A stretch of 43,439 nt of DNA from a virus. Its lineage: Duplodnaviria > Heunggongvirae > Uroviricota > Caudoviricetes. The notes under the pieces were generated by a model. That model saw only the letters and a list, made by a program, of their open reading frames with translations, was not told the DNA's origin and did no database searches. This document shows positions 16,173 to 43,439 of the stretch, piece by piece; position 1 is the first letter of the stretch, and the number at the start of each line of letters is the position of its first letter. Position numbers and translations under genes: made by a program. The DNA lies in IMG/VR virus record IMGVR_UViG_2711768068_000024. One strand, given 5' to 3'.

Positions 16173-17159
16173 ATGAAAAATAAGAACCAGTATCAGGCTT
16201 TACTTAGAGGGAAGGTCGAATCGGCGATTGCTCAAGCCAAAAGTGCTGCAGGATTTTCCCACCAGGGTGTTAAGGGAGCTGTTCTAGAAATATTATTAAG
16301 TCAACTATTTCGACCTCTTTTGCCCGCAGATGTTGGCATTGGCACAGGGCAAATCATTGAACAGTATTCAGGAAAGTTATCACCTCAAATAGATATTATT
16401 ATTTACAATAAATCAATACTCCCTCCGATATTAATCGATGGTGCCACAGGGTTATTCCCAATAGAATCAGTTCTATATACCATTGAGGTAAAAACCACAT
16501 TAAGTTCATCGGAACTCAGCTCTGCACACTCAAGTGCAAAAGAACTTAATGAGAAATTCGGTTACTTACCTGGAATAAAAGATGAATCAGGCAAACTAAT
16601 CCAACACAAAATAGAGAAACTTCGCTCGGTAATATTTGCTCTAAGTAGTGACTTATCACCAAATGGAATTACTGAAGCCGAAAGGTATAAAAAAATATAC
16701 AAAGAAGACTTTCGTTACGTTACAGCAATTTGCGTTGCAGGTCGTGAGTATAGTTATGAAGATCGAGATTGCTGGGTAACAATGCGTAATACTCAAGCGT
16801 ATGATGAAATCCTTGCATTTATTGGAGGCATAACCAATACATACAAAGGTGTTTCAGAAAGTCGTGGGACACCATTGCTAGGATATTACATTGTTCCAGA
16901 GAATGTCGAACTGAGCCTTACAGCTTGTACCACACTCCCGGAATTGCAAGTTAAGTGCACGCAATGCGCTGAAACTAAAAAAATAATCCCCACCTTTGAC
17001 AACGATGATGAACTAATACTAAAAAACTACACTCTTTCTGATAACAAGCCTTGTAAATGTGGTGGGGAATTTAAATCAGAAAAAGGTAATTTCACCATTA
17101 AAAATGGTCGACTGAGAGAAATAGAGTACAACGAGCCAGATCGAATTTACAAAGAGTAA
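16173..17159 (+). CDS. Cargo (moron) protein: possible PD-(D/E)xK-type motif with C-terminal zinc ribbon; function unknown
   Basis: 328-aa AT-rich ORF on the opposite strand between tail genes V and S; N-terminal region has a possible E...D...E-x-K arrangement (LEILL / QIDIIIYNK / TIEVK); C-terminus CTQC...CKCGG. Confidence 0.65.
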   Translation: MKNKNQYQALLRGKVESAIAQAKSAAGFSHQGVKGAVLEILLSQLFRPLLPADVGIGTGQIIEQYSGKLSPQIDIIIYNKSILPPILIDGATGLFPIESVLYTIEVKTTLSSSELSSAHSSAKELNEKFGYLPGIKDESGKLIQHKIEKLRSVIFALSSDLSPNGITEAERYKKIYKEDFRYVTAICVAGREYSYEDRDCWVTMRNTQAYDEILAFIGGITNTYKGVSESRGTPLLGYYIVPENVELSLTACTTLPELQVKCTQCAETKKIIPTFDNDDELILKNYTLSDNKPCKCGGEFKSEKGNFTIKNGRLREIEYNEPDRIYKE

Positions 17160-25585: not shown

Positions 25586-26326
25586 TTACTCAATAGGTTC
25601 AAACTCATCCTGAGGAATCAGCGTCGATTGACAGGCTTGGCTTAGTACTCCTGATAATTTACATAATAACCGATAGTTATGAGGAGCATCATCGCTAATC
25701 TTTTCGACCGTTAAAGTGATTGATTTTGGATCATCCAATAACATCTTCTTGATATCATTACTTAAATACCTAGGGCAGTAACCAACGATTTCAGCTGGTT
25801 TATCTGCACGAACGACAACAGCATCCCCATCGTATTCATTTTGAAGATCCAAGCAAAGACGCAAAATTTGCCCCGGTTTCAATTCAGATACACGAGCATT
25901 AGCTAAGCTATTTAAGTAACCAAGTCCATGTAAGAAGAAAAAATGCTCAAAGTTACCATCAGAATCAACATCAATTTTTTTGAAAATCTGCAGCTGATCA
26001 GTGCTTCGTAAGCCTCCCGAGCGAGCAAGAATATCGATAGGATTTACCTTATCTTCTTCAAATCCAAGCCATTTAATGAAACTCGGATACTCTGGACGTC
26101 TCGGTGATAAAAGGCGATTTTTAAAAAGAGGAAACAATTCTTCCGAAACATAAGTTTCACGAACATCACTCATGCCGCTAAACTTTGTAAATTTAGTAGA
26201 TTTAAGAGCACCTTTGGTATACCTGAAAACATACCCCGATTTGCGCTCTTGCAAGTTACCAACAACATGCCAGTCTCTGGTATCTGGTGCCTGCCATGCG
26301 ACGTAAACGGAGTTTGTATTAGTCAT
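25586..26326 (-). CDS. HipA-N-terminal-like domain fused to HIRAN-like domain
   Basis: 246 aa; N-terminus VYVAWQ..VVGNL..YVFRY..ELFPLFKNRLL resembles the HipA N-terminal subdomain; C-terminus ILRLCLDLQNEYDGDAVVVRADKPAEIVGYCPRYL fits the HIRAN pattern; 4-nt overlap with the upstream kinase gene. Confidence 0.55.
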   Translation of the reverse strand: MTNTNSVYVAWQAPDTRDWHVVGNLQERKSGYVFRYTKGALKSTKFTKFSGMSDVRETYVSEELFPLFKNRLLSPRRPEYPSFIKWLGFEEDKVNPIDILARSGGLRSTDQLQIFKKIDVDSDGNFEHFFFLHGLGYLNSLANARVSELKPGQILRLCLDLQNEYDGDAVVVRADKPAEIVGYCPRYLSNDIKKMLLDDPKSITLTVEKISDDAPHNYRLLCKLSGVLSQACQSTLIPQDEFEPIE

Positions 26327-27237
26327 TCTAGTAACCTTCTGCGATTTTCCATTACCATTAACGTTGCAAATCTACGTGCACTGTCGGATATACACGATGA
26401 AGGCACTTGGTTAAACACATCTGTAATGGAATCTTCTGTTAAAACGCTCAACTTACCTAACCAATGGTCGCGAGCGGCAACTCTCCCTTCAACTGCATGT
26501 TGAAATGCTTCAACGGTCAGCAAGGGCTTTTTATCAGTTTTTGCTTTGAATAGCTCAGAGCGAGCTTTTCTTACAAAACATGGGATTTGTCGATTTTTAT
26601 CTTTAGTATTAAGCCGTTCGTTACGCTCATCATCTAACATCTCCCTTCCTAAACTAGCGGCATGATCGTATGTTGGACACAAAAACTGCTCACCAGTTTC
26701 ATTGTTAAGCATGATCGCCCAATTTTCATGATGGCGATCTTGATTACTCACAAGTGCATCGAGCATCAAATATCCACAAAATACATCTGCTGCATTTAGC
26801 CCGGTTAGATCATATACACTCGGAGGAGGCTTGATAGATTCCCTATCCAAACAACCCAATACCCTTGTGACAGTGTGTTCTCTGACCCTTACCGGCTTTT
26901 CCCCGGCTTGTAAAGGCCCAGGATAATCGAATGTCGAACTGTGAAGCACTTCATTTCCCATTACCATCCGGAAACCAGATGGAATGATATTCTGAGTCAC
27001 CACACCGAATCGACCATTGTATCGCGCCAAATCATAGCTAGCATGTGGAATGTTAAGCAAATGACATAACTCAGCAGCACACTTTTCAGACCAATGCTCG
27101 CCAGTACCTGGCCTAGAGTACTTAAACAACTGCAAATTTACAGTGTCATCGGAGAAATAGAACCAAAACTTCTCTTTGGTTCCTAACTGTTCAAGATCGT
27201 TAGCTACGGGGCTAAGCTCTACCAATTGGTATGGCAT
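26323..27237 (-). CDS. HipA-like Ser/Thr kinase core (HipT-like, no N-terminal domain)
   Basis: 304 aa; GTKEKFW (P-loop-like), LVSNQDRHHENWAIM (catalytic loop, compare HipA GATDGHAKNFS), PTYDHAASL (metal-binding YD). Confidence 0.7.
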   Translation of the reverse strand: MPYQLVELSPVANDLEQLGTKEKFWFYFSDDTVNLQLFKYSRPGTGEHWSEKCAAELCHLLNIPHASYDLARYNGRFGVVTQNIIPSGFRMVMGNEVLHSSTFDYPGPLQAGEKPVRVREHTVTRVLGCLDRESIKPPPSVYDLTGLNAADVFCGYLMLDALVSNQDRHHENWAIMLNNETGEQFLCPTYDHAASLGREMLDDERNERLNTKDKNRQIPCFVRKARSELFKAKTDKKPLLTVEAFQHAVEGRVAARDHWLGKLSVLTEDSITDVFNQVPSSCISDSARRFATLMVMENRRRLLE

Positions 27238-29741: not shown

Positions 29742-32156
29742 TTAATACAGGTTCCGCCACTTATCATCTTCCTGCAAACGCTGGTTCCGATAGAAGATAC
29801 GCAGGCCTGCTCCTGACGGAATACTGCCGCCGCGAAGGAGTAAATCGACCTCTTTCTCGCTGCCATCAAATCCTCTGGATTTCAGTTCATAGACGAGCTG
29901 CTGTCGTTGATGGTCTGTAATTCGCTGTTTGTAGTCTCTACGCCGTTTCGGTTTCACCAGACGTAACCTTGCAGCCAATTCCCGGCGCTCCTTTTTGTTC
30001 ATACTGTGCAGGTAATCGTGCAACACCTTGTCATCCATGCGGGTAATGTCCGTTCTGGGGTCCCCATCAGCTGATTTATCTTTCTCCTGTTGGTTCAAAT
30101 TTTCAGCAAGGGGACAGTTATTGCCACGAGTCCAAGGGGCGCAAGCGCCCTGGTCGGCTGCCGCCTCCTGAACGTCAACGGCCTTACGAACCATTTTCCA
30201 CTTCACCGCATGAGTGCAGATCTTGCCCTCTGCAATGGGTGACCAGATGCCATAAATACGAATACCGTGATCGCCATAGGCGGTCGGCTCTTCGTTGATT
30301 TCATAAGCAGTTCTGATGAGGTGATATTTGCGGGGAACCAGTACGCCGCCCTGCTTCATGATGTAGGTGGCAAAACAACCAGCATCAGCAGCAGCCAGGA
30401 TTGCATCAAGGCGCGGGTTATCCAGTACCGGCGCACCTGCTTTTTTGTCCCCCTGTTGCCTTGCCGCCTGACCAGCCAGCAATCGCAGTTCACGGTAAGC
30501 CTGACGCCCCGGAATGCCAAAGAAGCGGAATTGCTGAACACGATGCAGAGACGCCCAGGCATTAACGTATTCAGCGTTATCACGCAGGGATTTACCCGTT
30601 TCCTTGCTGATCTCGCCAGCCAGACCACGCCCGTCAATGTTCTTACTGATGTATTTCGCGATGTAGCTTGTTGGCGTACCTTTGCGCGGGTTTATCAGCT
30701 CAGACTTAAAGCGTGGCCCCGTGTTATTGCCCAGCTCCTCGCGGTCTTCACGGATGGCAAACTTACGCAACAATGCAGTAATGGCGCGGCGGTCTTTTTT
30801 GCGCATGAAACACAACAGGTGCCAGTGAACTGTGCCGTCATGATGCGGTTCAGCCACCCGCACGCCATACCAGCGCAACCCGGCTTTGTGCATAGCCTTA
30901 CGAAATGCAGCAAACATGCCGACCAGATAATCGCTGCTTTGTCTTACCGTCGCGTTTGTCCAGGTCGGGTTTGGTCTGCCGTTATTGAGCGTGGAATGGA
31001 AACGCGACGGACAGGTGATAGTGTAGAAAACGGCACAGTCACTGCGCATTTCTGCGATAAGCTCCAGACCTTTAACACAGGCCATCATCTCATTGCGGCG
31101 ATGCGCCGGGTTGCTGCTGCTGGCGTTTACCACATCCTCCATGTCCAGCGTGTCGCCGTCTTCGTTCACCAGTTCATGAGAACGGAAAAACTCCAGCGAC
31201 TTACGGCGCTGCTCACGTTTATGCATCACGGCTTCATAGCTGACATAGGGAGATGCTTTTTTGCTGACCAGGCAAACAGCACGCAACTGCTCTTCCCGCC
31301 ATTCGCAACGCATCTTCCATAATTTCCGGTACCACCAATCGGCGCACAACATACGCGCCAGCGAACCCGGAATGAGTTCATAGGGCACGGGTTTACGGCG
31401 GTTTCTTTTCCGACGAAGTTGCTCAAACGCAGGCGGGATAACATCCAGTCGCAGGGTTTCTGCTGCCACCTTTTCCCATGTCTTGCGGATTTCTTCTGGC
31501 TTAACATCATCGGTGGCGTACAAATCACCACAAGCGGCATCAAGACACATGCTCATATGCGCAGCGACAAGAGTAGACAGGCGTTTCACCTGATCCTGAC
31601 TCATTTCAGGCAGAATCAGCAGGTCGTCCAGCCCTACATGGCTTGCCATAAAACGAAAAGATGCAGATAGCTGGCTGTCGCGTACATGCTCCAGTCGCTC
31701 CAAACATGGCTTAATCGTCTCACGCAAATAGCGGGAATAAGCCTTTGGCCTGCCCAAGCTGCTGAAGTATTCAATACGTTGCATCAGCGGCTTGCTGATA
31801 TGGGAAGGCTGGGCATTGACGTCCGCCAGAATGACCATATCTGGATTAAAACGCTGCTGCTCATGCGCCAGCTTTGCCCGACTAATGAGCTTATCCTGCT
31901 CCATTTCGCGCTGGACAGGATCACGGGATTCATTAAAGAAATAACGCTCCCAGACCTGATCACTCAGTGCCTCGCGGCGCAGGTGTTCCTGCTCGTTATC
32001 GGCAGCGTACAGAGCGATCAGGTTTGAAAGCGCAGAAACCGGCGCAACTTCCGCCGGGTCCAGATAAGGGTTAATGGCCTTTTTCGGGCTGTTCCATGAG
32101 AACGCTGCGGCAGCCTCGTTAAAGCCGCAGCAGTTGTTCATATCGGCATGGCTCAT
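29742..32156 (-). CDS. Replication initiation protein gpA (rolling-circle nickase)
   Basis: 804 aa, P2/186 A-like size and position. Confidence 0.9.
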
Positions 32157-35835: not shown

Positions 35836-36852
35836 ATGACCATCAGAAAACAGCCGAACGGAAAATGGTTGTGTGAGTGCTATCCCAATGGACGCAATGG
35901 TAAGCGCGTGCGTAAGCAATTTGCTACGAAAGGCGAAGCCATTGCTTTTGAAAGCTTCACAATGGAAGAAGTGAATAAAAAACCGTGGTTGGGTGAAAAG
36001 GATGATCGGCGACGCCTATCAGAATTAATTGAGCTTTGGTATTCCCTGTATGGTCAGACACTCGCAGACCCCAAGCGCCTCATGGCGAAACTTAGAATTA
36101 TCTGTAATGGTCTAGGCGACCCCATCGCCTCAGAACTGACAGCCGGTGACTTTACGAAATACCGCGAAGCACGGTTAAAAGGTGACGTTCGTAACGAAGA
36201 CGGCACACTAATGTCGCCAGTAAAACCACGCACGGTGAATCTTGAGCAACGTAACCTATCATCGGTTTTTGGCACATTGAAAAAACTAGGCCACTGGTCA
36301 GCACCAAATCCTCTCGCCGGGCTGCCAACATTTAAAATCGCTGAGGGGGAACTGGCGTTCCTGACCTCGGAAGAAATTAAACGTCTGCTAGATGCCTGCG
36401 CTGATTCTCAAAACCCCAGTCTGCTTTTGATTGCAAAAATATGCCTGGCCACCGGCGCACGCTGGAGTGAAGCCGAAAACCTGCAGGGCCATCAGTTATC
36501 TAAATACCGCATCACTTATACCAAGACGAAGGGTAAGAAAAACCGCACCGTGCCGATATCTCAAGATCTGTATGACGAACTCCCCAAGAACAGAGGGAAG
36601 CTATTCACCCCGTGCAGAAAAGCCTTTGAACGAGCAGTAAAGCGAGCTGGCATCGAGCTGCCAGAGGGCCAATGCACTCACGTGCTACGTCATACATTCG
36701 CCAGCCATTTTATGATGAATGGCGGAAACATACTGGTGCTGCGCGATATTCTGGGCCATGCCGATATAAAAATGACGATGATCTATTCTCATTTTTCACC
36801 AGAACACTTAGAAGATGCAGTAACTAAGAATCCTTTAAATTATATTGAGTGA
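35836..36852 (+). CDS. int: Tyrosine integrase (P2/186 family)
   Basis: 338 aa; C-terminal catalytic region (..HVLRHTFASHFMMNGG..LRDILGHADIKMTMIYSH) with the R...H-x-x-R...Y pattern; adjacent to attR. Confidence 0.9.
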   Translation: MTIRKQPNGKWLCECYPNGRNGKRVRKQFATKGEAIAFESFTMEEVNKKPWLGEKDDRRRLSELIELWYSLYGQTLADPKRLMAKLRIICNGLGDPIASELTAGDFTKYREARLKGDVRNEDGTLMSPVKPRTVNLEQRNLSSVFGTLKKLGHWSAPNPLAGLPTFKIAEGELAFLTSEEIKRLLDACADSQNPSLLLIAKICLATGARWSEAENLQGHQLSKYRITYTKTKGKKNRTVPISQDLYDELPKNRGKLFTPCRKAFERAVKRAGIELPEGQCTHVLRHTFASHFMMNGGNILVLRDILGHADIKMTMIYSHFSPEHLEDAVTKNPLNYIE

Positions 36853-37919
36853 AAATCATGTTAAGTGATACTTGTTATACAGTGATTTATATTGCAGCAA
36901 TCGTTTTATTAGTATTTATTACAATAGTAAAAAAATGGTACATGCTTGATAAAAGAAATTTATTTCGTCAGAAATTATTTTGGATTTCAGTTTTAACACC
37001 TTTATTTTCCTTTATCTATTTTGGTTTTTTCACATGGTGGGGAAAAGAACCAGTACTCTCCGCACATGGCTATTCAAGATTTTACGAAATAAGCAAATTC
37101 CCTCTACTATTGCTAGCTAGTGCAGTTCCTTTGGCTTCGATCGTCAACAATATACATCGCACTATACAAACCGAAGCTCAGATCAACACCGCTGAAACGA
37201 AAAATGCAGTCGATAGATATTTAGCACATGAGAAAAACTTTATTGAGAAAACAAAGGAAATATTCGCCTACAATCTTCAAAGCGCGAGAGACTCAGATGG
37301 AAACCTCATTAAATTCAATGGCGAACCAAATATCACTTTGTTTACAGCAGATGAAATTAAAATTTCCAACCCATATCTTTTATATACAAAAATATACAAC
37401 AAATCAAATATAGAGACCACATCTAACTTCACCGCAAACCCTGATTTTTTAGTGCAATTAAAGGAGTACTTAAACACAATTAATAATACTCTGTCGGTTC
37501 AACACTCTATAGATGAATATAATCCATTAAGTTACATGATTCGACTTAACACTTTGTCATATAATACAGCCTCGTTATTAGACCTGATATGTACATCCCC
37601 CATATCTCATGTATACTGTTTGATAAAATATGATGGGTATCAATTAAAAACATTTACACTTGAAGAACAAGTATTCGCCGATATTTTAGAAATATCATAT
37701 CTTCTATCAAGAAAACTAATTCGTTTGATATATAATGAAGATATACCACATTACGACAACATTTATAATTACTTATATGTTGGTAAGTTGAGGTTTAAAT
37801 TCAGAAAACACGCCAATTCTTTACAAGCATTTTCTTCGCAGGAATGGGCTGATTACGTTTCTGAAGCACTAACTCTAGTTCCTAACGAAGTTGGCGGCAC
37901 TTTGGCGGCAGCGCATTAA
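36849..37919 (+). CDS. Membrane-anchored cargo protein of unknown function between int and attR
   Basis: 356-aa very AT-rich ORF (GTG at 36849 or ATG at 36858); three predicted N-terminal TM helices then an Asn/Tyr/Ile-rich soluble domain. Confidence 0.65.
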   Translation: MKIMLSDTCYTVIYIAAIVLLVFITIVKKWYMLDKRNLFRQKLFWISVLTPLFSFIYFGFFTWWGKEPVLSAHGYSRFYEISKFPLLLLASAVPLASIVNNIHRTIQTEAQINTAETKNAVDRYLAHEKNFIEKTKEIFAYNLQSARDSDGNLIKFNGEPNITLFTADEIKISNPYLLYTKIYNKSNIETTSNFTANPDFLVQLKEYLNTINNTLSVQHSIDEYNPLSYMIRLNTLSYNTASLLDLICTSPISHVYCLIKYDGYQLKTFTLEEQVFADILEISYLLSRKLIRLIYNEDIPHYDNIYNYLYVGKLRFKFRKHANSLQAFSSQEWADYVSEALTLVPNEVGGTLAAAH

Positions 37920-38004: not shown

Positions 38005-38049
38005 ATGTAGGAATTTCGGACGCGGGTTCAACTCCCGCCAGCTCCACCA
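38005..38049. repeat. attR: second copy of the 45-bp ssrA 3'-end repeat
   Basis: Identical to 1016..1060; followed by a hairpin/T-tract and then the P4-type integrase gene, i.e. the original ssrA 3' flank. Confidence 0.85.
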
Positions 38050-38172: not shown

Positions 38173-39444
38173 ATGGGACCCATTAAGAAGGGTCCAAAAA
38201 CCGAGGGTCCCAAAATGGCAAAAATCGCTAAGAAGCTCACTGACACTGAAATCAAAAGCACCAAGCCAGCCGATAAAGAAATCAACTTGTTTGACGGTGA
38301 TGGTCTGATTCTACGAATCGCTCCTTTGGCGAAAGGAGGCAAGAAAAATTGGTATTTCAGGTATGCAGTACCAGTGAGCAAGAAAAGAACCAAAATGAGC
38401 CTTGGGACATATCCTCACCTTACCCTTGCAAGAGCCAGAGCCTTACGTGATGAATATCTCTCCTTTCTGGCAAATGGTGTTGATCCCCAAATCCATAACA
38501 ACGATAAGGCGAAGGCATTAAAGAGTGCTACTGAGCACACTCTCCAAGCCGTAGCGCGGAAATGGTTAGATGAGAAGGTAAAGACATCAGGTATCTCACA
38601 AGACCATGCAGCAGACATCTGGCGCAGCTTAGAGAGAAATGTCTTTCCCGGTCTGGGTAATGTCCCTATCAATGAGATCCGACCTAAGCTCTTAAAACAA
38701 CACCTTGATCCTATTGAGCAACGAGGCGTATTGGAAACTCTACGCCGTATCATTTCACGTCTGAATGAAATCTTCCGGTGGGCAGCTACTGAAGAACTTA
38801 TTGAGTTCAACCCGGCTGACAACCTTGGTCAAAGATTCAGTAAACCAAAAAAGCAAAATATGCCTGCCCTTCCCCCAAGCGAATTGCCAAGGTTTATGGA
38901 ATCTTTGACGAATGCGTCAATCCGGTTGGAAACACGTATGCTAATTGAATGGCAATTGTTGACATGGGTTCGTCCGGGTGAAGCCGTTCGCGCAAGGTGG
39001 TCTGATATTGATACAACCAACAGCATTTGGAACATTCCTGCTGATTTCATGAAAATGAAAAAGCTTCACAAAGTTCCTTTGAGTAAAGAAGCTTTGCGCA
39101 TCCTTGAATTAATGAAATCAATAAGTGGGCATAGAGAATGGGTTTTCCCCAGCATAAAAGCGCCTCTTAATCATATGCATGAACAAACAGCCAACGCAGC
39201 TATCATCCGAATGGGGTTCGGAGGCGAGCTTGTAGCTCACGGTATGCGTTCTATTGCACGAACAGCGGCAGAGGAGTCTGGTAAATTCAGAGCTGAAGTT
39301 CTTGAGGCAGCGCTTGCCCACTCGAAAAAAGATGAAATTATCGCAGCATACAATCGTGCAGAATATCTGATAGAGCGACAGAGTTTGATGCAATGGTGGA
39401 GTGATTACGTTCAAGCTCAAAGATCAAATGCTCTGGTAGCCTAA
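38173..39444 (+). CDS. intA: P4-type tyrosine integrase (IntA/CP4-57 family)
   Basis: 423-aa track ORF; N-terminal KLTDTEIKSTKPADKEINLFDGDGLILRI is the P4-integrase arm-binding pattern; true start may be the Met at 38215. Confidence 0.85.
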   Translation: MGPIKKGPKTEGPKMAKIAKKLTDTEIKSTKPADKEINLFDGDGLILRIAPLAKGGKKNWYFRYAVPVSKKRTKMSLGTYPHLTLARARALRDEYLSFLANGVDPQIHNNDKAKALKSATEHTLQAVARKWLDEKVKTSGISQDHAADIWRSLERNVFPGLGNVPINEIRPKLLKQHLDPIEQRGVLETLRRIISRLNEIFRWAATEELIEFNPADNLGQRFSKPKKQNMPALPPSELPRFMESLTNASIRLETRMLIEWQLLTWVRPGEAVRARWSDIDTTNSIWNIPADFMKMKKLHKVPLSKEALRILELMKSISGHREWVFPSIKAPLNHMHEQTANAAIIRMGFGGELVAHGMRSIARTAAEESGKFRAEVLEAALAHSKKDEIIAAYNRAEYLIERQSLMQWWSDYVQAQRSNALVA

Positions 39445-39482: not shown

Positions 39483-39899
39483 ATGGAAACCCTATTCAAA
39501 GTTTTTGAAAAATTTAGTTCCAGACCACTTTTTTTTATTTTTTTCGGACTCTCACTTTGTGAATTTTTTCAGAAACAATCTGTTCTGATGAATCCATCAG
39601 CAGATAACATCGCGAAATTATTCGCAGCCATGATATTAGTTGTTTTTTTTACTTGGGGATTTGAATGGCTAATCTTCAAGTTCAATGTAAACCTTGAACC
39701 TCATGATCAAGGCGATATTGGACCAACAATTGGAACGGCTACTTTAGCTGTATACTTAGTTTATGCCTTTCACTTTCTCAGTGAAAATCCTGAAGCATTA
39801 AATTTAAAGTTATTAACTAACTCTGGCTTTATATACAGCACAACTCTATTATTATTCTCATTAGAATGCATGAAGCTTAGAAGACTTAAACAAAAATAA
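39483..39899 (+). CDS. Small multi-pass membrane protein, unknown function
   Basis: 138-aa ORF with about four hydrophobic segments; AT-rich; convergent with the kinase/receiver operon. Confidence 0.5.
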   Translation: METLFKVFEKFSSRPLFFIFFGLSLCEFFQKQSVLMNPSADNIAKLFAAMILVVFFTWGFEWLIFKFNVNLEPHDQGDIGPTIGTATLAVYLVYAFHFLSENPEALNLKLLTNSGFIYSTTLLLFSLECMKLRRLKQK

Positions 39900-39970: not shown

Positions 39971-41737
39971 TTATGGTAGCATCATTGATACATAATCCAC
40001 ACCAATCCTTGAGCTATACTGAGACGCTATAGCCTGATATCTTTCTGCATAACCAGTTCTCAGTTGAGATTTAAGTTTGAGTCGGACAGGAACATTTTGC
40101 ACGTTGCCATCCATATTACTTAAAAACACGGCAGAAATAATATTTTTTTCTTCGCCATCAACTGTTGTTCCATGATTCAACACCACCATATAATCAACAA
40201 CAGGAAGCGTTTTATCCCCTTCGAAAATAGAGAGATATTTTCTTTGATTTTTATGCATTACATATATATATTTCGAATGTTCAGCAAATGGCAATGCTTT
40301 ACTCTGACTGGCGTTAAAAAGCTCCAGAACTTTAATGAGCCTGTGCGGACTTAATCTTACATGGTGAGGGTCGTTACCCTGAGTAGGAACCAAATCACAT
40401 GCCGCAGATACACATAAATACCATTTGTTCGACTCTGTATCAAAGAAAATAGTGCCAGTAGAAATATGACCATCTTCAAAATTCTTTGAAGACAAATTCA
40501 TATTTAAAGCATGATACATTTCGTGATAAGTATCATTATTTGATGGCAGATCCATTTTTGAAGAGCAATATTGGAGCAATGCAGCAACTCCGCTGTTAGC
40601 GTATTCATTTGAATAGCTATCAAAAACACTTTTGATAAATTCATCCAGCGTATTATTATTTTTAAGTCTTTGATAAAGCTCTTCTGATAAATTACCAAAT
40701 ACAAAGTCAATATTTCTACATCTAATATCAGGCGAGTCTGATTTTAATATCTCATTTAACCACGCAGCTTGACCGTAATGATCGTTAGCCAAATGATTTA
40801 CAAAAGATAAAGCCTCAGCTTCGATTGCATTCTGAATTTCAGATTTTATTAACTGATAATAAGATGGTTTCCATTCAATGAGAGAATCATTGAGAGTTTG
40901 CCAAATCCTATCTCCATCGTTTTCATGATCATCTTGAACCTTATGAAATAGGGAGACAAAGATATTACCACATTGAATCCATTTTACTCCGCTTTCATCA
41001 CCCCGAATGACATTGCCAGATGTGTTGCTAGAAATAATTGCATTTCTAGACACAGCATATTCTGCAATCATTTTTGCAATGAAGTTTTTATCCTTTTGAT
41101 CCTCCAACACAGCATCATCATGTATTAATCTTTTAATTCTTCTACAAGGCTTACTGTCTTTAATATAGGCTATTGTTTCATCTCTTGTGAGAGCTTTATT
41201 ACCATTATCATTTAAGTTCGGTAATACAACGTCTTCCCAATAACTTTGGACATCTTCATTATCGTAGTCAATGATCAAGCTGTTGATATCCAGAGCACCT
41301 TTGAGAGTCGATGATATCTGCATCCAAACCGTTTCTAAATTCTCTCTAGTATATATTACAATCATATTTAAATGATCGGAGTCTTTCAAATCTTGTAATA
41401 GTTTAAGTGTTTTATCAGGTGCATTATTATCAAGATGATAATCTACAATAATAAGATCTGATTTTCTAATCCGATCCACATCGAAATTAACAGAACCATT
41501 GTCAACATCACAAATCATATTTTTAGATTGAAAAAAGCTCTCAAGAGTAGCGGCTCGTTTAGATGAGTCAATTTTGTTGTAGTCTAAATCAACTTCGTTA
41601 TTCAACGCCCTGATTGATTCAGAATACGTCAGAAAATCGTCATCAATCATGACAACGGAACGAATTGCATTTTCGCAGAAAGTTTTCTGGACAAGAGAAT
41701 TATAATTTGCCACTGTCATATTAGAACTCCACTCCAT
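39971..41737 (-). CDS. Receiver (REC)-like domain fused to a large uncharacterised C-terminal domain
   Basis: N-terminal ~140 aa show receiver hallmarks (VVMIDDD, DLIIVDYHLD, MIVIYT); ~430 further aa unassigned; more likely start is the RBS-preceded ATG at 41719, 1 nt after the kinase stop. Confidence 0.65.
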   Translation of the reverse strand: MEWSSNMTVANYNSLVQKTFCENAIRSVVMIDDDFLTYSESIRALNNEVDLDYNKIDSSKRAATLESFFQSKNMICDVDNGSVNFDVDRIRKSDLIIVDYHLDNNAPDKTLKLLQDLKDSDHLNMIVIYTRENLETVWMQISSTLKGALDINSLIIDYDNEDVQSYWEDVVLPNLNDNGNKALTRDETIAYIKDSKPCRRIKRLIHDDAVLEDQKDKNFIAKMIAEYAVSRNAIISSNTSGNVIRGDESGVKWIQCGNIFVSLFHKVQDDHENDGDRIWQTLNDSLIEWKPSYYQLIKSEIQNAIEAEALSFVNHLANDHYGQAAWLNEILKSDSPDIRCRNIDFVFGNLSEELYQRLKNNNTLDEFIKSVFDSYSNEYANSGVAALLQYCSSKMDLPSNNDTYHEMYHALNMNLSSKNFEDGHISTGTIFFDTESNKWYLCVSAACDLVPTQGNDPHHVRLSPHRLIKVLELFNASQSKALPFAEHSKYIYVMHKNQRKYLSIFEGDKTLPVVDYMVVLNHGTTVDGEEKNIISAVFLSNMDGNVQNVPVRLKLKSQLRTGYAERYQAIASQYSSRIGVDYVSMMLP

Positions 41738-43439
41738 TGAACTGGATCACAAAATTAGCGCCATCTTTTATTAAATAGTTATCGCCTTCATCAGGTTCTG
41801 AATACCATATTTTATGATGTGCAACAGCAAGGTTTTCTCGACATAGATACAGACCTACCCCATGTCCATTTGCTCTTTTGCTATAAAATAGTTCAAATAG
41901 TCGCGGGATATCATCGGTATCAATTGCCGGACCAGAATTTGCTATGATAACCAAAGAATTCACAAAACCAATCTTTATGAGCCTATTATTTGACAGACTG
42001 ACCCAATACATTGCATTGTTGATAATATTAGTAAAAACAGGATAGATCCTTGATGGTATATCTGTTATTGCGATTTGCTTAAACTCTTCACTAAATTCAA
42101 TAGTTATTCGTTGCCGTTCGAAACGCTCCCCAAAGAACTTCAGGACATAATCCATGATATTTTTTCCAGTTATTCTCTGCCTGGATTGATAACCTGATAT
42201 TTTCAAAGGTGATAAGAAACGTATTTGTTGAGTAAGCGATCTGTGAGCATTTAACGCCAATGAAAAACCAGGGTGTTCTTTTACAGAAGTAGGAAGAGAG
42301 TTTAGTCCTCTGGTTACCATAGAATCCATTTCTTCAAGTTCATGAGATATTATCTCAACACTAATACCTAACTGTGCAAGCGCGTTTAAACTTTTAGCTT
42401 TTTCTTCAAAATATGAGCGTTCTTCTTCAGATAATGAGAATGCTGAATCTAAGTTTATACCTTCAAATAATCCATCGAGACCTTTTATTATTGATTGATA
42501 TTTGAAAGTTAGGGTATCAACTGACTCAACATATAAACTATCGAGCAAATTAAACACATTTTCAATTTGTGAATCATTATCTATTGAATCAACAACTGAT
42601 ATAGTTTTAGCATAATAATCACTTCGATCAACCTTTATTTCATCGGCCCATTTTTTTAAAAGAGAATGTATCTTCTCCTCTATCGTGTTATTAAACTTAG
42701 TTAGTTTAGAATTAATAATACCTTGATTTTTTTCAAGGTGATTTTTCGCTGACAATGAAGGCTCAAGTTTATTTAATTCAGAATCAAGTTTATTAATTGC
42801 TAACTTCATTTGTAGAATATACGCAGAGAACTCATTAAATTTATCTCTGTAGTCTCTATATTTCTCTTCATACATTCCAAGTTTTGGAGGTTTGATAGGC
42901 GTTTTAATTTCACTGCGCAACGCATCTAAGTTTGTAAGATCACTGTCTATAATTTTAAGATAGTTTAAATCTAACGAACCATCAGTTTTATCAAGCTTAG
43001 TTTTCAGCCTTTTAACAGCCTCCAAGGAAGCATCAAGAACTGGTGTCTGATTCTTCAAAGCTTCTGAAAAACTTTTTTGTGTTGATTTTCGAGCTTGTTG
43101 TTGAGCAGATTTTCTTAACTCTTTTTCACGCTTAACTTGTTCTAAAAGCTCTTTACGGTCATCAGAACGTGAACCAAAAAATCTATCAGCAAGTTCAGTT
43201 AACAAATTAGATATAATAGTTTTCAGTTCTCTTGCAGCCTGGTTTCTTATGAATCCCTCTCTCCCCGACTTATCTTTCAGCTCTTTATTACTGGATTGAG
43301 TAATTCCAATATAACCAAAAATCCTTCTATTAGACCAATAATATCGCCCTGCATTCCATGAACGTCTTTCTTCTATCTGGAAGAAATCATTATCTACTCG
43401 ACCATAAGGTAATACTCTCAAGCTATCCCTAAAAATCAT
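41721..43439 (-). CDS. Histidine-kinase-like protein (H-box + HATPase_c), 5' end probably outside the window
   Basis: ISHELEEMD (H-box), FTNIINNAMYW (N-box), NSGPAIDTDD and GHGVGLYL (G-boxes) in canonical order at the C-terminus; long K/E-rich N-terminal region without TM segments; ORF open to the window edge. Confidence 0.75.
   Translation of the reverse strand: MIFRDSLRVLPYGRVDNDFFQIEERRSWNAGRYYWSNRRIFGYIGITQSSNKELKDKSGREGFIRNQAARELKTIISNLLTELADRFFGSRSDDRKELLEQVKREKELRKSAQQQARKSTQKSFSEALKNQTPVLDASLEAVKRLKTKLDKTDGSLDLNYLKIIDSDLTNLDALRSEIKTPIKPPKLGMYEEKYRDYRDKFNEFSAYILQMKLAINKLDSELNKLEPSLSAKNHLEKNQGIINSKLTKFNNTIEEKIHSLLKKWADEIKVDRSDYYAKTISVVDSIDNDSQIENVFNLLDSLYVESVDTLTFKYQSIIKGLDGLFEGINLDSAFSLSEEERSYFEEKAKSLNALAQLGISVEIISHELEEMDSMVTRGLNSLPTSVKEHPGFSLALNAHRSLTQQIRFLSPLKISGYQSRQRITGKNIMDYVLKFFGERFERQRITIEFSEEFKQIAITDIPSRIYPVFTNIINNAMYWVSLSNNRLIKIGFVNSLVIIANSGPAIDTDDIPRLFELFYSKRANGHGVGLYLCRENLAVAHHKIWYSEPDEGDNYLIKDGANFVIQFNGVEF

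Follow-up and report, generated by a model that had tools for sequence, protein, structure and literature searches.

Does a histidine kinase/receiver gene pair carried on a mobile island of Escherichia coli form a working phosphorelay-type defence module? The question is raised by the end of a 43,439-nt stretch of DNA (the window), filed as the IMG/VR virus record IMGVR_UViG_2711768068_000024 (Caudoviricetes), where two minus-strand genes at 39971-43439 encode a kinase-like and a receiver-effector protein. An initial annotation made from the letters alone had read them as a candidate defence module, possibly a distinct two-gene family. Our analysis shows that the pair in E. coli is the leftover of a three-gene operon on a P4-integrase island at ssrA. 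As judged from gene content and domain matches, the conserved unit is made up of a C5 DNA methylase, a paraMORC-ATPase/histidine-kinase fusion and a receiver-effector. The family is already known, having been described computationally in 2021. Taken jointly, the reading of the E. coli pair as a remnant and a restriction-modification-like mechanism for the intact system are, in our judgement, probable.

The two genes are adjacent and co-directional in the window. The kinase-like open reading frame (ORF; 41721-43439, minus strand) encodes 572 aa and is, from the ORF list and Pfam, a 5'-truncated paraMORC/histidine-kinase fusion gene. The receiver-effector gene (39971-41719, minus strand), characterized by the ORF list, Pfam and an AlphaFold2 (AF2) model, is intact in the window and encodes 582 aa plus a stop, a length counted from the PGAP/RefSeq start ATG, with an alternative in-frame ATG at 41737. 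The kinase stop codon (41723-41721) and the receiver ATG (41719-41717) are separated by 1 nt, and a Shine-Dalgarno GGAG sits 7 nt 5' of this ATG, which confirms the tight coupling and the ribosome-binding site proposed at the outset. The kinase/receiver block has a GC content of 33.6% compared to ~50% in the rest of the window, and the domains of the preceding P4-type integrase were matched, so the description of an AT-rich block after such an integrase also stands. The integrase is, however, not directly followed by the pair, as a 138-aa ORF (39483-39899, plus strand) lies between it and the receiver gene.

All of the kinase and receiver motifs initially quoted are present. In the kinase ORF, ISHELEEMD starts at aa 364, FTNIINNAMYW at 469, NSGPAIDTDD at 501 and GHGVGLYL at 525; in the receiver protein, VVMIDDD starts at aa 22, DLIIVDYHLD at 88 and MIVIYT at 119. 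By its position, ISHELEEMD is the H-box (nt 42324-42350, minus strand), whose SHELEE carries the predicted phospho-acceptor His366, equivalent to His782 of a full-length protein described below. The Pfam models gave matches above their cut-offs for both proteins. In the kinase ORF, the DHp helices (42198-42374, minus strand) match HEF_HK (PF19191) with 26.0 bits over aa 356-414 (cut-off 24.1), and the catalytic ATP-binding domain (41781-42056, minus strand), with its N, G1-like (NSGP) and G2 (GHGVGL) boxes, matches HATPase_c with 44.9 bits and an E-value of 1.8e-11 over aa 462-553 (cut-off 26.4). The receiver protein matches Response_reg_2 (PF19192) with 109 bits and an E-value of 3.7e-31 over aa 25-181 (cut-off 27). 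In the homologue alignment the His and Glu of SHELEE and the N, NSGP and GxGxGL boxes are invariant across the family, and the kinase-core matches of the pair in NCBIfam are all below threshold. Judged by these motifs and Pfam matches, the kinase core is a real one of the soluble histidine-kinase type, and the proposal of a soluble kinase with a receiver of non-DNA-binding output on a mobile island is supported.

The kinase ORF is a part of a larger protein. A protein search with the 572-aa ORF returned, besides 572-aa E. coli proteins, 988-aa homologues from Salmonella, Klebsiella and Serratia (P0035, P0037, P0038 and P0042), whose C-terminal 572 aa are 99% identical to the window ORF, which corresponds to residues 417-988 of the full-length protein. 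The N-terminus of the latter holds a PF13589 domain (HATPase_c_3, paraMORC) with intact GHKL motifs at ~residues 30-110; further on, a very conserved transducer-like segment (~417-500) is followed by a coiled coil (~500-760) and by the DHp region with an invariant His782-Glu pair. Residues 759-969 of P0038 match the Thermotoga kinase ThkA, a solved structure (3a0r), with an E-value of 1e-6. The long charged N-terminal region noticed initially is thus present in the window ORF, but it is actually the coiled-coil linker together with part of the transducer of the larger protein.

The intact element is found in the contigs that encode P0038 (L004, L005 and L006), where it adjoins smpB. The gene order is smpB, P4-type integrase, 138-aa ORF, receiver (582 aa), kinase (988 aa) and C5 methylase. 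The methylase (402 aa) has a 20-nt overlap with the kinase start, and the island runs on past it with a relaxase and further integrases.

The window copy has neither the paraMORC domain of the kinase nor the methylase: the first ~375 of 988 kinase codons are gone. In E. coli loci that are 100% identical, the frame stays open for ~125 nt (~40 codons) 5' of the 572-aa ATG and then meets the terminal repeat of the insertion sequence IS3, beyond which lies ygaQ, a truncated chromosomal pseudogene. We searched 5426 complete E. coli genomes with a probe consisting of the methylase and kinase N-terminus of the intact contig. The probe matches 558 of them over nt 2316-2449 only, its last 134 nt, and none of the 5426 covers 80% of it. 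No methylase gene stands beside the pair in the window, and in the E. coli loci examined none separates the island from ygaQ. Loci with IS3 at the junction and those that lack it (L023, L027 and the CP-1639 record) share one and the same breakpoint sequence. Because the same breakpoint recurs in 558 genomes, with or without IS3, all E. coli copies descend from one single ancestral deletion; IS3 now sits at the junction in most strains, and the junctions without it reflect its later loss. This deletion joined kinase codon ~376 to ygaQ; lost with it were kinase residues 1-~375, the methylase and the remainder of the island. In GenBank AJ304858.2 the block already bears its depositors' label 'remnant integrative element', with a 'histidin kinase-like protein' in it. 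The expectation that further components lie beyond position 43439 holds for the family, where these are the methylase and the paraMORC domain, but not for the E. coli copies, which are cut at the IS3/ygaQ' junction.

Outside E. coli, the complete operon is conserved. Receiver homologues at 59%, 46%, 32% and 28% identity lie on a Salmonella integrative and conjugative element (ICE), in Acinetobacter Tn7-like cargo, on a metagenome contig and on an Acidobacteria ICE, and at all four distant loci a 972-996-aa kinase with HATPase_c_3, HEF_HK and HATPase_c stands directly upstream, with a C5 methylase beside it. The kinase-receiver spacing consists of 0-2 nt gaps or overlaps in L004, L011, L014, L016 and L018. 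A scan of species-representative genomes gave 38 loci, 33 of them with enough flank to judge. A single full-length kinase ORF ending at the receiver start is present in 33/33 of these informative loci, and a C5 methylase lies within the locus in 31/33. The methylase is immediately upstream and co-directional at 23 loci, convergent downstream at 6, co-directional downstream at 1, and ~3 kb upstream on the opposite strand at 1; one of the two loci (2/33) that lack it ends 130 nt past the receiver match. Thus the conserved unit has three genes, and the suggestion of a distinct two-gene family falls away.

The check for homologues on islands and mobile elements, proposed initially, finds them on ICEs, in Tn7-like cargo and on integrase islands. 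Genes neighbouring the triad include SIR2 with a helicase, E2/JAB/ThiF and HipA. Plasmid matches are two only, both distant, and the two 'phage' matches are records that include this chromosomal remnant. In the Acinetobacter loci L014/L015 (1-11104), the triad is directly downstream of tnsBCDE-like genes, as Tn7-like transposon cargo, and the convergent methylase is followed by a small gene with a helix-turn-helix domain. A 7.5-kb contig (L029, DYWT01000267.1) of a metagenome-assembled genome named 'Sporosarcina psychrophila' carries a receiver with 100% protein identity to that of the window, preceded by the kinase 3' end; its presence in a Sporosarcina bin is almost certainly due to contamination or mis-binning.

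A second disrupted kinase gene was found in Klebsiella pneumoniae (L020, CP141543.1, 5734-8719), where two ORFs, one of 314 aa with HATPase_c_3 and one of 572 aa, take the place of a single kinase gene; methylase and receiver gene are both undamaged. The split is an independent inactivation of the same kinase gene. P0038 has no Met codon between residues ~300 and 416, so that a disruption there shifts the called start to M417; '572-aa' proteins annotated elsewhere can therefore come from disrupted genes.

Comparison of the alleles shows how the pair has changed since the truncation. Between the window and the intact L004 allele, the ratio of nonsynonymous to synonymous changes is 6:3 in the kinase fragment and 1:12 in the receiver. 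Among 12 E. coli copies, a small sample drawn from the more divergent end of the hit list, it is 8:2 in the kinase fragment and 6:6 in the receiver, and the receiver shift from 1:12 to 6:6 has a Fisher p of 0.03. The changes within E. coli include L107P in the receiver domain and, in the kinase, I364T beside the H-box as well as S463L and I465S where the ATP-binding domain begins, just before the N-box. In L007 and L010 the annotation gives the receiver gene as a frameshifted pseudogene, and in L027 an insertion sequence interrupts it. The direction of these ratios is consistent with constraint that was strong in the intact system and has relaxed since the truncation. With the first ~375 kinase codons and the methylase gone and constraint relaxed, the claim of a working defence module in the window is not borne out: the E. 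coli copy is probably not such a module, and most likely it is an inactive, slowly decaying relic that lacks the sensor and the self-marking enzyme.

The receiver-effector protein carries the output of the system. Its AF2 model has a mean pLDDT of 85.5 and a pTM of 0.76. A REC-like (PF19192) domain (40865-41719, minus strand), delimited by Pfam, AF2 secondary structure and invariant columns, contains a helical insertion at ~aa 145-238 that the model places between helix 4 and strand 5. Residues D26, D27, D93, T124 and K260 are invariant in 34 sequences, including homologues down to 23% identity; D26 and D27 form the acidic pair and D93 is the predicted phospho-acceptor. A Foldseek search of the PDB gives weak matches to flavodoxin/REC folds for the receiver N-terminus and none for the remaining parts. 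An all-helical middle domain follows (aa 286-410; 40490-40864, minus strand; alignment and AF2), which opens with a conserved SEIQNxxE helix, and then a beta-rich C-terminal domain (aa 411-582; 39974-40489, minus strand), the presumed effector. In the model, the beta-rich part itself spans aa 411-553 and is followed by a conserved C-terminal helix and a tail (RIGVD). Invariant or nearly so in this domain are G422, T423, C441, after which an Asp mostly comes, Q552-L553-R554 and, in the tail, R571-x-G573-x-D575.

A structural comparison of the receiver C-terminus had been suggested initially; the model was obtained, but neither the full receiver model nor the C-terminal one gave a PDB match in Foldseek below an E-value of 1e-3. 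The receiver family profile likewise found nothing among PDB sequences, Pfam, PDB and PADLOC all lack a match to the C-terminal 300 aa, and there is no recognisable DNA-binding domain in the output region. When 1.84 billion representative proteins were searched, the C-terminal 298 aa (264 representatives) were found only in proteins of the same architecture or in shorter ones; the latter have no other Pfam domain and are probably fragments. The C-terminal domain has a weak though consistent similarity to the CcdB/MazF/Kid fold, at 5-12% identity and without sequence support. It differs from this toxin fold in that there is no Pfam or PDB sequence signal and no Foldseek match, and in that no catalytic residues can be mapped. 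The modelled resemblance may serve as a lead only.

This family is known from previous work. Bellieny-Rabelo, Pretorius & Moleleki 2021 (PMC8011034) built PF19191 and PF19192 from this gene pair, E. coli strains being among those that they analysed. In their survey of 644 regions, linkage of the two genes reached 91.6%; C5 methylases and other restriction-modification (R-M) genes were strongly associated with the pair, and 83% of the kinase-like proteins, the majority 'group 1', had a HATPase_c_3 (paraMORC) domain at the N-terminus. They proposed a cytoplasmic two-component-like system with some R-M link, in a computational study without experiments. The window pair is a member of this HEF_HK/Response_reg_2 family, with both Pfam models above cut-off, adjacent genes and a soluble kinase, and it differs in having neither HATPase_c_3 nor methylase, which reflects the IS3-associated deletion and not a natural variant. 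Iyer, Abhiman & Aravind 2008 (PMC2292703) had placed paraMORC GHKL ATPases in R-M operons. The full-length kinase resembles these paraMORC/MORC ATPases in its N-terminal GHKL ATPase and transducer, its cytosine-methylase operon and its location on mobile DNA; it is unlike them in the coiled-coil fusion to a kinase core and in having a receiver as partner rather than a helicase or endonuclease. Type II R-M systems with a C5 methylase share the mobility and the tight linkage of this enzyme, whose gene in the intact operon often overlaps the one that follows, but the intact triad has no recognisable endonuclease and the restriction arm would be the signalling pair. Two further systems were compared. 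MADS, of interest for its link to methylation, was rejected, as it has an N6 methylase, a different and larger operon (11 genes in the MADS-like form) and no described kinase-receiver pair; Shedu/paraMORC3 (VcSduA) was set aside for its different architecture, a GHKL domain with a DUF4263 nuclease.

The initial annotation had pointed to Detocs, which consists of DtcA, DtcB and DtcC (bioRxiv 10.1101/2023.01.24.525353). The concept is alike, a His-to-Asp phosphotransfer that activates a receiver-fused effector and not a transcription factor, and so is the layout of a soluble kinase and a receiver with non-DNA-binding output on a mobile element. The sensor, however, is here a MORC-type ATPase instead of a TPR domain, the effector is different and unassigned, and a C5 methylase, to which Detocs is not linked, is an integral third gene. 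Neither the window nor the intact loci have a DtcB-like standalone receiver within or beside the pair, and a TPR sensor and a PNP or other known Detocs effector are likewise missing. With PADLOC v2, neither the two proteins nor the full-length kinase had a significant hit; for the DtcA profile there was no hit at E <= 1 beyond noise, and the full-length N-terminus is a GHKL ATPase. The lack of an Hpt gene had been taken as a pointer to a distinct family, but the third Detocs gene is a standalone receiver 'buffer' and not an Hpt. Membership in Detocs, direct variants included, fails on each feature examined and has next to no probability.

How might the intact system work? We propose that it would act as a restriction-modification-like conflict system. 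The methylase would mark self DNA, and the MORC-like ATPase module would engage DNA and detect that which is unmodified, i.e. foreign. A signal passing through the coiled coil would then switch on autophosphorylation of His782, from which the phosphoryl group would move to Asp93 of the receiver. This would release the C-terminal effector, possibly a toxin-like domain with a CcdB/MazF fold or else a nuclease that escapes recognition, and the invader or the infected cell would be stopped. The joint loss of methylase and sensor domain in E. coli is what one would expect if a complete kinase-receiver arm were harmful without methylation. The E. coli deletion and the split K. pneumoniae kinase with its methylase kept both fit this R-M logic, and neither proves it.

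Two other explanations have to be weighed against the joint reading of a decayed remnant and an R-M-like intact system. The 2021 authors speculated on a regulatory role: as an ordinary two-component system, the family would respond to a cytoplasmic cue, for example nucleotide levels, and govern the expression or activity of the neighbouring R-M genes, without itself being the killing arm. The canonical His-Asp residues, the constant association with methylases and other R-M genes and the lack of a recognisable nuclease in the three genes would all agree with such a role; yet most loci consist of the triad alone with its methylase, leaving no separate endonuclease to regulate, and the receiver has no DNA-binding or other known regulatory output domain. 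The N-terminal MORC-type ATPase belongs moreover to a class tied to R-M function (PMC2292703), and the triad sits on ICEs, Tn7-like elements and integrase islands beside defence genes such as SIR2-helicase and E2/JAB/ThiF, so that we regard a purely regulatory family as unlikely. The other explanation concerns E. coli itself, where the truncated kinase, freed from its sensor, could still drive the receiver-gated effector as a functional two-gene module, for defence or for another benefit. The H-box, the N/G1/G2 boxes and the REC catalytic residues are all kept, together with the translational coupling and the Shine-Dalgarno sequence, a same-orientation IS3 upstream could drive transcription, and kinases without the N-terminal domain were described as a natural 'group 2' (34/222; PMC8011034). 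Against this, every E. coli copy stems from one deletion that took the methylase too, the full-length kinase is kept in 33/33 species loci, and '572-aa' proteins elsewhere can stem from disrupted genes, as in K. pneumoniae L020 with the restart at M417. With 8 nonsynonymous and 2 synonymous changes the kinase fragment is near the neutral ratio, the receiver gene has acquired frameshifts, an insertion sequence and changes such as L107P, and no PADLOC model matches; a still-functional module in E. coli therefore appears quite improbable.

Several points nevertheless weigh against a remnant of an R-M-like system. The window and most of the ~560 carrier E. coli genomes have both ORFs undisrupted, with kinase core and receiver complete, and residual or new activity of the truncated pair is possible. 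The polymorphism sample is small, and the sequence past 43439 in the window's own genome is taken from identical genomes. Pfam, PDB and Foldseek searches of the intact triad reveal no nuclease and no other known effector domain. We found no experimental study of any family member in the literature, and both defence and phosphotransfer are read from sequence. Accordingly graded, the intact family is a candidate methylation-gated phosphotransfer immune system. We find it doubtful, though worth stating, that the family is in full a methylation-gated immune system in which a MORC-ATPase-kinase would, on contact with unmethylated DNA, phosphorylate a toxin- or nuclease-releasing receiver in a kind of restriction by phosphorelay, including the weaker variant in which the truncated E. 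coli pair would be retained as useful.

The remaining features of the window describe the island and the prophage that shares its site. The P4-type tyrosine integrase of the decayed ssrA island (38173-39444, plus strand) is identified by Arm-DNA-bind_3, Phage_int_M and Phage_integrase, and the same integrase arrangement adjoins ssrA/smpB in L001, L002 and L004. The 138-aa ORF, known from the ORF list, has four hydrophobic stretches and is convergent with the receiver gene. The same gene occurs in L004, and L020 has a convergent ORF of 140 aa in the corresponding place; the distant triad loci lack the gene, and neither Pfam nor PADLOC gives a hit for it. This ORF travels with the island and is not conserved with the system in distant lineages. 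A second 45-nt copy of the ssrA 3' end, an attachment (att) site at 38005-38049 (plus strand), is an exact repeat of 1016-1060. It marks the left end of the island, which was displaced from ssrA by a P2-like prophage in the same site: the exact repeat indicates that the integrase island is the ssrA island, pushed away by the prophage insertion.

The P2-like prophage occupies 1061-38004 and is flanked by these two 45-nt copies (1016-1060 and 38005-38049). It includes a gene A replication protein (29742-32156), large tail and terminase-sized ORFs and a P2-type integrase (35836-36852). Two adjacent prophage cargo genes of lower GC at 25586-27237 (minus strand) match the PADLOC candidate defence system PDC-M03: PDC-M03A has 304 aa (E 2e-122) and a weak HipA_C-like kinase hit, and PDC-M03B has 246 aa (E 3e-93) and a HIRAN domain. 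In a prophage patch of 39% GC, a 328-aa ORF at 16173-17159 (plus strand) matches DUF6602 and PADLOC PD-DExK/NucC-like nuclease models (E 7e-32 and 7e-14), and it may be another defence cargo gene. Between the P2-type integrase, whose stop it overlaps, and the att site lies a 356-aa ORF (36849-37919, plus strand; 33% GC) with N-terminal hydrophobic segments, no Pfam match above cut-off and no PADLOC hit. The matching prophage-end region of other E. coli strains is annotated with different genes, such as an anti-phage dCTP deaminase (H74 and H75) or a DUF4760 protein (L003), and this prophage end looks like a variable cargo hotspot.

About 1 in 10 complete E. coli genomes carries the kinase/receiver pair, annotated just as 'ATP-binding protein' and 'response regulator receiver domain'. 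Our results indicate that it is to be read as a decayed island remnant and not scored as a two-gene defence system. They also sharpen the 2021 description, in that the conserved unit is a methylase, a full-length MORC/kinase fusion and a receiver-effector on ICEs, Tn7-like elements and integrase islands. The E. coli form lacking the N-terminus is due to a deletion, and the other such locus examined, in K. pneumoniae, is a frameshifted gene. For cloning, an intact allele exists whose kinase shares 99% identity with the E. coli fragment. If the proposed restriction-like mechanism with His-Asp signalling is true, it would connect the MORC ATPases of bacteria with epigenetic self-marking and two-component signalling.

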